Shown here: one piece after another, positions 32,627-54,570 of the stretch
Layout: each line of letters opens with the position of its first letter
How positions within the stretch are numbered: the stretch's first letter is position 1
Source: Desulfurococcaceae archaeon
GTDB taxonomy: Archaea; Thermoproteota; Thermoprotei_A; Sulfolobales; Desulfurococcaceae
Length of the DNA stretch: 64,000 bases
Assembly: GCA_038888155.1 (NCBI GenBank)
Contig: JAWAJB010000001.1
Location: 128,001 to 192,000 of the forward strand
Reading direction: 5' to 3'
Notes under the pieces: model-generated
Seen by the model: the letters and a program-made list of their open reading frames with translations, nothing else
Told to the model about the DNA's origin: nothing
The model's database searches: none
Made by a program: the position numbers and the translations under genes

Positions 32627-32918
32627 CTGTTTAAGGCAATTACTTTGGTGAAGTTTCAATGTACATTTCATGTTAAATTCCAGCTAGCAAAATGGTAACT
32701 TAAATATAGTCCTCTCGGAAAGCAACCCTAGAGGAAAGGTGCCTAGCTCCATTCTGGGTTGAAGGGAGGTAGTGAAGCCGAGGACTTATAGAAAGGCATG
32801 TAGATAGGGCACTTAAGTTTGCATTTATAACAGCCGCTCCCTCGTGTACAGCGAAGTATATTACTTAACCCAGCCCTTTAAAAGCGAATTCTCTAAATCG
32901 TGTCGTTGGGGACAAAAA

Positions 32919-33281
32919 TTGAGCATCAATAAAGTAATTGTTGAAGTGCAGTTAGATTTTAGCGAGGAGAGCGATCGAGCATTAAAAACGCTGTTCAACG
33001 TAGCCGAAGAGCTACTCGATAAATACGAGCTTTGGGTGGAGATAATCCCCGTTCATTTATGGTTTTCAGATCCATTGGAAGCTGAACTATCTGATCTACC
33101 CAAGATATTTATAAATGGGAAGTTGAGGTTTATCGGCAAATCACCAAGCAGAAGGGAAGCCCTTAACGCTATTTTAGAGCACGCCAATACCCCACCTAAA
33201 CGGGTTGAAACTGCGAGCAACACTATAAACTCGAGGATCGATTTTGACGGCGGTATTCCAGAGGTTGCTCTAACATTCTAG
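32919..33281 (+). CDS. Small thioredoxin-fold-like protein lacking CxxC
   Basis: LPKIFING (cis-Pro loop pattern) and G..P; TTG start at 32919 after GGGG SD preferred to 32844. Confidence 0.55.
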   Translation: MSINKVIVEVQLDFSEESDRALKTLFNVAEELLDKYELWVEIIPVHLWFSDPLEAELSDLPKIFINGKLRFIGKSPSRREALNAILEHANTPPKRVETASNTINSRIDFDGGIPEVALTF

Positions 33282-33300
33282 GCAGGTATGGGAATTCTTA

Positions 33301-33313
33301 GAAAATTATATAA
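33301..33313 (+). promoter_or_regulatory. BRE/TATA promoter for the putative K-turn RNA
   Basis: GAAAA-TTATATAA about 25 nt upstream of 33338, with no downstream protein ORF on this strand. Confidence 0.55.
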
Positions 33314-33337
33314 GGGTCTTAGAGCAAATTACACTTA

Positions 33338-33530
33338 GCCGAGAACTCTTCGCCACGGTGAGACGGGCTTATTCGCACAGTTCGTTCCAGTACTGGCTTG
33401 CTTTATTATTTAGCAAAACAACAAGCTAATATATCGCCATACTAGATAAGTGGAACAAGCTAATAAAACTGTAGCTATAAATGAACGCGGAAATGAATAA
33501 TTGTATAAGTGGCGAGGAGTTCGATGAGGC
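33338..33530 (+). ncRNA. Putative ~190-nt non-coding RNA closed by a 14-bp stem and a terminal kink-turn
   Basis: GCC-GA-GAACTCTTCGCCAC (33338-33356) pairs with GTGGCGAGGAGTTC-GAT-GA-GGC (33509-33530): 14 bp with one G-U, 3-nt bulge, tandem G.A, 3-bp NC stem. Confidence 0.6.
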
Positions 33531-33571
33531 ACCTCGGAGAATTAAATGTGAAAGTTTCACGCCATTGAGCA

Positions 33572-34381
33572 CTATCTAGGTGCTCTCTTCCTTAGCCACG
33601 TTGTGGTATGTTCGTGGGCTAAATAAGCTGCGTTCTCTTCATCCCCCTTTAGTAAGTAGTAGTAAAAGTAAGTTGAAGTAAAGTAATCTCCTGCACCTGT
33701 TTTGTTCTCGGCAACGTAATCCACTGGCAGATCAATTGATTTTACAGCACTTGAGCTTATTAAAATAGACTTGTTCGGCCTAATTGTAACAACCATAACC
33801 CCCTTAAGGCGCTTAGATATCTTCTCAGTAGCATCTTTTAAATTCGACGACAATGTAAGCGCTAGAAATTCCTCAAGATCTGCGTGGATTACATCTGGTA
33901 CTTCCAGTGCTATCATTGCCTCTGGGGTAGAGTCTAGAACTAACTCGCCTTCCCTTACTCTTCTCAAAAAACCCTGTAGATCTACGGCCAGCAGCTCGGA
34001 GCCGCATTTAATACCCTTAAGAGTTGATATGCTAACTTCTCCAATAACAGGGTTAACAATTGAGTAACACTGACCTTCGTGCATGTTCCACGGATATATA
34101 GATGGCGCTAGTTCAAGTGCCCTTATTCTCCTTGTGCTGCCTAAGTATTCTATTTTGAAAATGTTTGCAGTGCTTGAGTACTGTTTTACATTTATGTAGG
34201 CGCTAATGGGATGGCTTATGAGTCGATGACTGTACGCAGCATAGACTTCTACCTTGAGGTTTCGCTCAATGAGCGGTATCGCAGAATAGAATGACCCACC
34301 TCCGTGTGCGGCTTCTTCTTTTACTTTACCAATGCTTATTAGATCTATTGTGGGATTGCCGTAAATGCAGAACCTCTTCAA
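33572..34381 (-). CDS. PfkB/ribokinase-family carbohydrate kinase
   Basis: GN...D, GGGS.Y, D.QG..R, TGAGD.F. Confidence 0.8.
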   Translation of the reverse strand: MKRFCIYGNPTIDLISIGKVKEEAAHGGGSFYSAIPLIERNLKVEVYAAYSHRLISHPISAYINVKQYSSTANIFKIEYLGSTRRIRALELAPSIYPWNMHEGQCYSIVNPVIGEVSISTLKGIKCGSELLAVDLQGFLRRVREGELVLDSTPEAMIALEVPDVIHADLEEFLALTLSSNLKDATEKISKRLKGVMVVTIRPNKSILISSSAVKSIDLPVDYVAENKTGAGDYFTSTYFYYYLLKGDEENAAYLAHEHTTTWLRKRAPR

Positions 34382-34662
34382 GATTCATCCTCGGCTTTGC
34401 TACTGAGCAATTTCTCGACTCTCTTCTTTTGTTCAAACAAATGATAGCCTTTAATGTGCTCTATAAGATCTTCGACAGAGTAGAAAAATGAGTTTTCATA
34501 TTTGTAGTTAACCGGGGGGGTCTCGCCTAAACACTTTGACGCAGCATGGGCACAAATAGGGCAAGAAATGAGGCCCGTTATTTTGTCTCTACACGTCCTG
34601 AACCTTATTCCCTCGTGGTCGACTTCAAATAACTCCCACCTGGGCTCCCAAGTATAGGCCAA
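34378..34662 (-). CDS. Small zinc-finger-like protein
   Basis: CPIC ... F....DL.EH...H pattern; TTG start after GAGGTG SD. Confidence 0.7.
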   Translation of the reverse strand: MAYTWEPRWELFEVDHEGIRFRTCRDKITGLISCPICAHAASKCLGETPPVNYKYENSFFYSVEDLIEHIKGYHLFEQKKRVEKLLSSKAEDES

Positions 34663-54432: not shown

Positions 54433-54479
54433 CTGTTAGTAAAGTAAGAGGACCTCATCCTTATAAATATTATACACTA

Positions 54480-54564
54480 TGCGGGGGGTGGGATTCGAAC
54501 CCACGCAGGCCTACGCCATCGGGTTCTAAGCCCGACCCCTTTGACCTAGCTCGGGCACCCCCGC
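54480..54564 (-). tRNA. tRNA-Leu (anticodon TAG), no intron, CCA not encoded
   Basis: GCGGGGG/CCCCCGC acceptor stem, anticodon stem TCGGG/CCCGA with loop CTTAGAA, long variable arm, GGTTCGAATCC T-arm. Confidence 0.97.
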
Positions 54565-54570
54565 AACACT

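Follow-up and report, generated by a model that had tools for sequence, protein, structure and literature searches.

What occupies the gap between a thioredoxin-fold gene and a convergent PfkB-like gene in the genome of a Desulfurococcaceae archaeon (assembly GCA_038888155.1, contig JAWAJB010000001.1)? We analysed 64,000 nt of this contig (positions 128,001 to 192,000 of the forward strand; hereafter the window), for which an earlier note, made from the sequence, had proposed an unannotated RNA closed by a 14-bp stem and a terminal kink-turn. The gap holds a stand-alone, non-coding RNA gene of 194 nt at window positions 33338-33531 (+), where that note had placed it. Its clamp stem and kink-turn are conserved across the family, and it is present in RNA libraries. 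We consider it probable, with room for other readings, that the gene specifies a trans-acting small RNA (sRNA) of a family that is, as far as detectable, restricted to Desulfurococcaceae: an L7Ae-type kink-turn RNA, probably circularised, that acts as a loop-presenting scaffold or sponge.

A clamp stem closed by a kink-turn on the plus strand

The inferred 5' end of the RNA is the GCC at 33338-33340 (+), which pairs with GGC at 33528-33530 (+) to form a terminal 3-bp helix; one further A (33531) is the inferred 3' end, taken from a contig of sequencing run X9 that is described below. Inside this helix, GA at 33341-33342 on the non-bulged strand lies opposite GA at 33526-33527 on the bulged strand, giving tandem sheared G.A pairs, and the three-nucleotide bulge (L1-L3) is GAU at 33523-33525. 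The GC-rich clamp stem P1 follows, its 5' strand GAACUCUUCGCCAC (33343-33356) pairing with its 3' strand GUGGCGAGGAGUUC (33509-33522) through 14 bp, of which 13 are Watson-Crick and one is a U.G pair that would become an A.C mismatch if read on the minus strand. Sequence, fold and covariation all define P1, which encloses an AU-rich interior "loop" of 152 nt (33357-33508) holding a palindrome and direct repeats. By convention, the name canonical (C) helix belongs to the long stem, which on the bulged strand precedes the bulge (5' side), and the non-canonical (NC) helix is the terminal GCC/GGC. The earlier note had placed every one of these elements correctly, and the stem covaries as set out below; the note's helix labels needed revision, the long stem being the C helix. 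It was also right about polarity, with D-like sequence in the 5' strand and C-like sequence in the 3' strand.

The plus strand folds at -55.4 kcal/mol (z = -3.3), with 0 out of 200 shuffles as good. The minus strand folds nearly as well (z = -3.5), so folding energy alone cannot give the strand; the gene is assigned to the plus strand by its promoter together with the G.U and G.A pairs. This promoter, a TFB recognition element and TATA box (GAAAATTATATAA, 33301-33313, +), has a TATA core that ends 24 nt before 33338. When the 5' flanks of 33 homologues were aligned gap-free at the RNA start, a TATA-like element (consensus aAAa.ttTAtAAggg) was present at -36 to -22 in all 33. A structured, previously unannotated plus-strand RNA gene with a promoter of its own, as had been proposed, is borne out by this element and by G.U pairs that exist on the plus strand only. 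A scan of the whole 2.42-Mb genome on both strands for kink-turn clamps of this design with a perfect 12-bp stem returned four matches, among which only the present locus has the GAUGA strand; each of the other three contains two to three G.U pairs.

Conservation in Desulfurococcaceae

A DNA similarity search of 40 related genomes found nothing useful (one 40-nt match at E 0.007), and was uninformative because even same-genus proteins are only about 40-50% identical. Since this search had failed, we reached homologues through synteny. The conserved order is seryl-tRNA synthetase, the thioredoxin-fold gene, a gap, and the convergent PfkB-like gene together with a gene for a 94-aa protein, and the RNA gene was located in the gap at 19 out of 23 syntenic loci that hold both flanking genes. 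These genes have a TATA element about 24 nt upstream, begin with G(C/U)NGA(G/A) followed by the stem, and end with the stem followed by (G/A)AUGA(G/A)(G/A)C. In the four loci that have no RNA, the gap measures about 35 nt (L013, L014 and L015) or 143 nt without the motif (L018). Scanning named genomes by alignment of the upstream protein produced 30 loci, 25 of them with the RNA; all 30 belong to Desulfurococcaceae or to Desulfurococcales metagenome-assembled genomes, including Thermosphaera sp. and Desulfurococcus sp. All 22 loci found later by model or pattern have the RNA, flanked by these two neighbours in every case.

In total, 37 distinct homologue sequences were collected, all from Desulfurococcaceae, and they fall into a small form of 164-220 nt and a large form of 255-314 nt that has a second helix, P2. 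A model of the small form (R1) run on 151 genomes of the order matched 8 out of 18 genomes of family f1 as well as the window's own genome, and 0 out of 132 genomes in 12 other families of the order. With laxer filters, the same model matched 12 out of 16 same-genus genomes, plus genera g6 and g8, among 40 genomes. In four genomes where the large form is known to occur, R1 found nothing; since it is blind to large forms, its negatives outside the family carry little weight. An exact pattern that combines P2 with the kink-turn strand, applied to 325 genomes of the order, matched 17 out of 62 f1 genomes, once each, 0 out of 262 genomes in other families and nothing in the reversed control. Complete genomes of the family are among those that contain the RNA. 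For the four same-genus genomes without a syntenic RNA, R1 found no copy elsewhere, and its positive control was recovered. The RNA gene has thus been cleanly lost in four same-genus species, with the flanking genes intact. Several genera also lack it.

Conservation at syntenic loci, which the earlier note had suggested as a check, was observed for both clamp and kink-turn, with compensatory changes. In an alignment of 15 small-form sequences (A1), 90.7% of cells in the 21 clamp pairs were paired and 16 out of 21 pairs had changed on both sides; none of 500 shuffles reached any of the five measures used, and slid controls paired at 37-49%. An independent RNAalifold prediction gave 16 pairs, and compensatory changes occur in 14. 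For the large form (alignment A6, 11 sequences), 99.7% were paired, with double changes in 9 out of 14 P1 pairs. P2 (CCACCACCGCC / GGCGGUGGUGG), which a bulge of about 30 nt on the 5' strand separates from P1, was invariant in 11 out of 11 pairs, and one flanking pair covaries. The P2 sequence is the same across at least eight genera (loci L030-L033, L054-L064 and L078-L094), and P1 next to it covaries freely. Invariance of this kind suggests that P2 is recognised in a sequence-specific manner.

The kink-turn itself was compared in all 37 homologues. The sheared G.A and A.G pairs were kept in 37 out of 37, and the bulge was GAU in 34 and AAU in 3, with L2-L3 being AU in every sequence. The pair closing the C helix (-1) was G-C in 33, A-U in 2 and G-U in 2; the 3n.3b pair was C.G in 25, A.A in 9 and another combination in 3; 4n-4b was C-G in 36 and U-A in 1; and 5n-5b was G-C in all 37. 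Judged by sequence, positions 33338-33343 and 33522-33530 have the features of a kink-turn motif. Because all sequence features of a standard kink-turn are invariant, we infer that L7Ae binds here.

The depth of this conservation bears on the alternative that the earlier note had itself raised, a miniature inverted-repeat transposable element (MITE). A 14-bp terminal inverted repeat flanked by GA is indeed what such an element would have. BLAST of 33300-33570 against the 2.42-Mb assembly, however, returned only the self-match, the other 13 matches being 14-26 nt long with E >= 0.16, and we rejected a MITE because the sequence is single copy genome-wide. The syntenic site is fixed among relatives, the promoter stands at a fixed distance, and the covariation includes G.U pairs, none of which fits a mobile element. 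A small-ORF carrier, also suggested earlier, finds a candidate in a 32-codon open reading frame (ORF) that begins at 33481, but this ORF runs beyond the 3' end of the RNA. No ORF is conserved among 33 homologues, whose longest ATG ORFs range from 2 to 62 codons and are mutually unrelated. We give a MITE or an ORF carrier virtually no chance.

Relation to known RNA classes

Rfam 15 at gathering thresholds identified only a tRNA in the whole 64-kb window, and with permissive settings the region 33100-33800 yielded three matches at chance level (E 0.57-3.6). The sole tRNA of the window is a tRNA-Leu (anticodon TAG) at 54479-54565 (-). A weak C/D-like match to sR43 at 33605-33646 (-), inside the kinase-like coding sequence, scored 11.5 bits (E 3.6), where the cut-off is 45, and was taken as chance. 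The earlier note had seen no hallmarks of signal recognition particle (SRP) RNA, RNase P RNA or H/ACA sRNA, and our searches agree. A reduced RNase P RNA was rejected, the real one being elsewhere on the same contig (154.5 bits), as was a reduced SRP RNA, two SRP RNAs being located elsewhere in the genome (142 and 132 bits). An H/ACA sRNA was rejected in the absence of a pocket, a 3' ACA or an Rfam match, and its long stem corresponds to the C helix rather than the NC helix; an ACA after P1 occurs only in large forms.

The assembly looks composite: it totals 2.42 Mb, compared with a range of 0.9-1.5 Mb among 16 genomes of the same genus, and its contamination is 6.4%. The two SRP RNA genes are on different contigs, and a full 16S gene on contig C31 is accompanied by partial 16S pieces on C4.

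Archaeal box C/D sRNAs share with this RNA a kink-turn that has tandem G.A pairs as well as an AUGA strand. As in the K-loop of a C'/D' motif, CCGA, the D-like strand, comes first (5') and (G/U)(C/U)GAUGA, the C-like strand, second (3'); the RNA looks like a C'/D' motif in which the loop has grown to a long stem topped by a giant loop. We nevertheless rejected a box C/D sRNA, because the box order is reversed (5' GCCGA, 3' GAUGAGGC) and most members lack an internal box pair. Unlike box C/D sRNAs, this RNA has no 5' box C (RUGAUGA) with 3' box D (CUGA) and no 10-12-nt guide beside a D box; its NC side is a fully paired terminal helix of 3-4 bp in place of guide strands; its 3b.3n pair is G-C or A.A, not U.U; and it matches no Rfam C/D family. 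Box C/D sRNAs are about 50-70 nt long, whereas this RNA measures 164-314 nt.

Eukaryotic kink-turns offer a further likeness. The U4 snRNA 5' stem-loop and U3 box B/C both have a C helix, an (A/G)AU bulge, GA, and a short G-C-rich NC stem facing CC-GA, and this local sequence logic matches the kink-turn described here. In U3 B/C, too, the GA-only strand is 5' of the UGAUGA strand, and were the RNA circular, a very small loop would cap its NC stem of 2-3 bp, much like the one in U4. The likeness to U4 and U3 is one of local sequence, without claim to homology; the rest of the RNA is unrelated, and binding of a Nop-domain protein here is purely conjectural. Archaea are not known to have a spliceosome. 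By functional analogy, 6S RNA, CsrB/RsmZ and Y RNA are likewise abundant, stable RNAs with a long terminal stem and a large loop or repeated short motifs, and they share no known sequence, structure or protein partner with this RNA.

Matching no Rfam family, the RNA had been put forward as a candidate new class, which is an overstatement, as non-guide sRNAs that bind L7Ae through kink-turns are known in Pyrococcus abyssi (PMC3124441). That paper describes sRkB, sRkC and sRk52 as non-guide sRNAs of about 130-216 nt with one or two kink-turns or K-loops, which bind L7Ae and have no known function. The broad kind is the same, an archaeal kink-turn sRNA that is neither C/D nor H/ACA. The P. abyssi sRNAs come from a different phylum, show no sequence relation to ours in Rfam and DNA searches, and derive from repeated or IS200/IS605-linked intergenic regions (PMC3124441), in contrast to the single-copy, syntenic gene studied here. 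What we describe is therefore a new family, or a variant, within the L7Ae-type kink-turn non-guide sRNAs and not a new class. We found no published description of this RNA in the literature; supplementary tables, such as that of 21 unassigned sRNAs of Sulfolobus acidocaldarius noted in PMC5539422, lay beyond the search.

Transcripts and RNA ends

Nine public sequencing runs contain the stretch, two of which are metatranscriptomes (X6 and X9). All were used as contigs, for which depth is one mean per contig and resolves neither strand nor local depth. RNA contigs from both metatranscriptomes cover the locus, in keeping with the transcript that had been predicted, with the strand not shown. In X6, a 485-nt contig spans 33362-33846 at a depth of 434.5, compared with 6.9 for a contig of the upstream gene and 6.4-7.4 for three contigs of the kinase-like gene. 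This step of about 60-fold is hard to attribute to DNA carry-over and points to a very abundant transcript. The contig leaves 33338-33361 uncovered and, at its other end, joins the RNA to a downstream stretch (33532-33846, +) that runs antisense to the kinase-like gene at its 3' end. This stretch is possibly a read-through tail or 3' trailer that ends near the T4 run at 33836-33839, downstream of the RNA gene.

Run X9 produced a 169-nt contig that covers 33377-33531 and then continues as GCCGAGAACTCTTC, which is exactly 33338-33351. No joint of 33531 to 33338 occurred in two DNA runs compared alongside. A circular RNA of 194 nt would yield this junction, which thus suggests a circle; the contig, the only one of its kind, has a depth of 2.19. 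The junction puts the RNA ends within one base of those predicted by the earlier note, and even if it had arisen by template switching, it would mark abundant RNA ends at 33338 and 33531. Formation of a circle by the splicing endonuclease was rejected, as inspection of the flanks by hand revealed no bulge-helix-bulge motif (two 3-nt bulges, 4 bp apart) at the ends. The sole alternative end pairing comprises 5 bp (33339-33343 with 33533-33537), has bulges of 8 and 11 nt and lies in flanks that are not conserved.

We propose instead that a protein-protected terminal helix would set the mature RNA ends, which would then be ligated into the 194-nt circle. Energy parameters at 85 °C do not predict the 3-bp terminal helix of the window RNA on its own, which fits a need for protein or ligation to hold the ends. 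The assembly contains genes for RtcB and Nop5; a search of it for TIGR01209, the family of Rnl3-type ligases, gave no match, making RtcB the likelier ligase. In Thermococcus, an ATP-dependent ligase (archaeal Rnl) circularises C/D sRNAs only if a terminal stem juxtaposes their ends (PMC9014305). Like those circular C/D sRNAs, the present RNA has a helix that holds its ends, and both are candidate substrates for circularisation (PMC9014305).

The interior loop and its possible targets

At 85 °C, predicted pairing probabilities are 0.80-0.98 for the clamp and 0.27-0.46 for the interior; in the window RNA they are 0.87 and 0.27, and only P1 persists. No consensus secondary structure of the interior emerged among relatives. 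These results accord with the AT-rich, largely single-stranded interior that had been described. Sequence elements noted there earlier are present, namely a 12-nt direct repeat AACAAGCTAATA at 33420-33431 and 33454-33465, a 10-nt palindrome CCAGTACTGG at 33387-33396 and a Shine-Dalgarno-like GGTGA at 33357-33361; all three turned out to be species-specific and are not conserved in relatives. Interiors as a whole are poorly conserved in sequence. Certain short motifs recur: AUACA was observed 59 times against 10.4 expected, UAUACAG is found in 11 out of 33 sequences and GUUUUU in 12 out of 33, all counts that the relatedness of the sequences inflates. At growth temperature, only the clamp would be folded, and the ribonucleoprotein (RNP) would show a mostly single-stranded, AU-rich loop of 120-250 nt, rich in AUACA-type motifs.

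A loop of this kind could base-pair with pre-rRNA, tRNA or mRNA, with the RNA working as a U3-like or atypical C/D-like guide or chaperone. L7Ae-type kink-turn RNAs are typically guides, the loop here is large and single-stranded, and short loop motifs recur among homologues. Furthermore, two members from genus g24 (L052:837-1025 and L077, minus strand, 1501-1688) have an additional K-loop in the interior, an arrangement that recalls C/D plus C'/D'; this K-loop consists of GC(A/C)GA, 7 nt and GAUGA(A/G)GC and is closed by a helix of 6-8 bp. Such internal K-loops are not general, with 16 candidates against 20.9 in shuffles, and are convincing only in those two. In five complete genomes, the longest complementarity between the interior and the genome's own rRNA operon with 1.5-kb flanks was 13-16 nt, compared with shuffle maxima of 15-18 nt, and the best sites differed among the five. 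Against the 49 tRNAs of its own assembly, the interior of the window RNA reached a best run of 11 nt, the shuffle mean being 11.3. With complementarity to rRNA operons (five genomes) and tRNAs (own genome) within shuffles, the RNA does not qualify as a box C/D guide, and the guide function that had been floated earlier finds no support for rRNA or tRNA. These results, the poorly conserved loop and the missing 5' box C, 3' box D and guide beside a D box speak against base-pairing, which we consider unlikely.

Neighbouring genes and the antisense alternative

The upstream neighbour (32844-33281, +) encodes a 145-aa thioredoxin-fold protein without CxxC and is always 5' of the RNA gene. Its predicted structure has a pLDDT of 68, and Foldseek gives weak thioredoxin-like matches (best E 4.6e-3). 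One orthologue, at L025:772-1200, carries a single in-frame stop codon. The convergent downstream neighbour (33572-34381, -) encodes a very divergent PfkB/ribokinase-like protein of 269 aa, its PfkB match being below cut-offs. Adjoining it family-wide is the gene for the 94-aa protein with a CPIC...H...H pattern (34378-34662, -), for which no Pfam or NCBIfam family was found at significant E-values. Protein family and structure searches of the neighbouring genes gave no functional lead.

The position of the RNA gene raises the alternative of a cis-acting or antisense regulator of the convergent kinase-like gene. Its transcript would enter the 3' end of the operon for the kinase-like and Zn proteins, with the kink-turn clamp being a processing or stability module of the antisense transcript. 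The order of thioredoxin-like gene, RNA and convergent kinase-like gene recurs in every locus with the RNA, across at least 14 genera, though the kinase-like protein is only 25-50% identical. The X6 contig reaches 33846, a position within the kinase-like gene and 316 nt beyond the RNA, and in genus g1 the 3' end of the RNA is close to the kinase stop codon. Against this, an oligo-T run is located directly 3' of the GGC in many large-form, g8 and g24 genes, as for termination there; it is the clamp and kink-turn, and not the overlap downstream, that are under selection; the flanking genes remain unaltered at loci from which the RNA has been deleted (L013-L015); and the contigs are strandless, with the X9 junction contig defining an end at 33531. 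We regard an antisense role as improbable, with a small chance that still has to be reckoned with, and because the synteny is so deep, a cis/antisense link remains a serious rival to a trans-acting sRNA.

Candidate partners and mode of action

Two L7Ae-family matches are encoded in the assembly, and the PF01248 match scores 103 bits. The kink-turn would be bound by L7Ae; its arrangement (C helix, G/A-A-U, GA and GGC, facing GCC, GA and C helix) resembles those of the U4 5' stem-loop and C'/D'. The archaeal clients known for L7Ae are nearly all rRNA, guides, RNase P RNA or SRP RNA. In Sulfolobus, L7Ae regulates translation through kink-turns in mRNA leaders, and L7Ae immunoprecipitation with RNA sequencing in S. 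acidocaldarius lists C/D sRNAs, rRNA, RNase P RNA, SRP RNA and mRNAs as partners (both PMC5539422).

A protein that autoregulates through kink-turns might be buffered by a decoy that titrates L7Ae, or L7Ae with Nop5. The translational control reported for Sulfolobus (PMC5539422) would fit a decoy, as would the kink-turn being the sole strictly conserved element and the high depth of the RNA-library contig. With one or two sites per RNA, though, a ribosomal protein as abundant as this would be titrated poorly, and a decoy leaves the invariant P2, the long loop and the loss in four species unexplained. We think a decoy very unlikely.

For the trans-acting sRNA, the most likely action would be that of a stable scaffold or sponge offering its loop to a protein partner, rather than that of a modification guide. 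Several observations weigh against this interpretation. The circle rests on that one X9 contig of depth 2.19 from one run, and template switching by reverse transcriptase between abundant molecules could yield the same junction. The high-depth X6 contig contains no junction and instead extends into downstream DNA, and its mean depth can neither separate the RNA from the 316 nt downstream nor give the strand. If transcription started exactly at G33338, the RNA would have a 5' triphosphate, which RtcB does not accept as a substrate. Since 4 out of 16 same-genus species lack the RNA, it is dispensable in them, and the window's own copy lacks AUACA, so that what the loop displays is not uniform. 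Finally, the scaffold or sponge function was reached by exclusion, being favoured only because the guide and coding readings found no support.

A further-reaching possibility is an abundant archaeal RNP of a kind not recognised before, built on a guide-less, covalently circular RNA whose ligated ends would form a kink-turn hairpin like the U4 5' stem-loop and recruit L7Ae together with Nop5. We see only a slim chance of this. If true, it would mean that the C/D protein machinery is used for a job beyond methylation guidance, and the RNP would be an archaeal counterpart of the eukaryotic non-guide kink-turn modules of U4 and U3. Archaeal kink-turn RNPs are the ancestors of eukaryotic small nucleolar RNPs and of these U4 and U3 modules.

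Implications for Desulfurococcaceae

The kink-turn appears here to be used "the wrong way round", in that its NC side bears the RNA ends and its C side opens into a giant loop. Pipelines that rely on Rfam miss the gene, which leaves an annotation gap in every Desulfurococcaceae genome, those of cultured genera included. As a family-wide, single-copy sRNA that is apparently abundant in one metatranscriptome, it may serve as a model for roles of kink-turn proteins beyond guide assembly. It may equally be a model for how RNA ends are defined and circles ligated in Thermoproteota without an Rnl3 ligase, and for how a long AU-rich RNA stays stable in hyperthermophiles.

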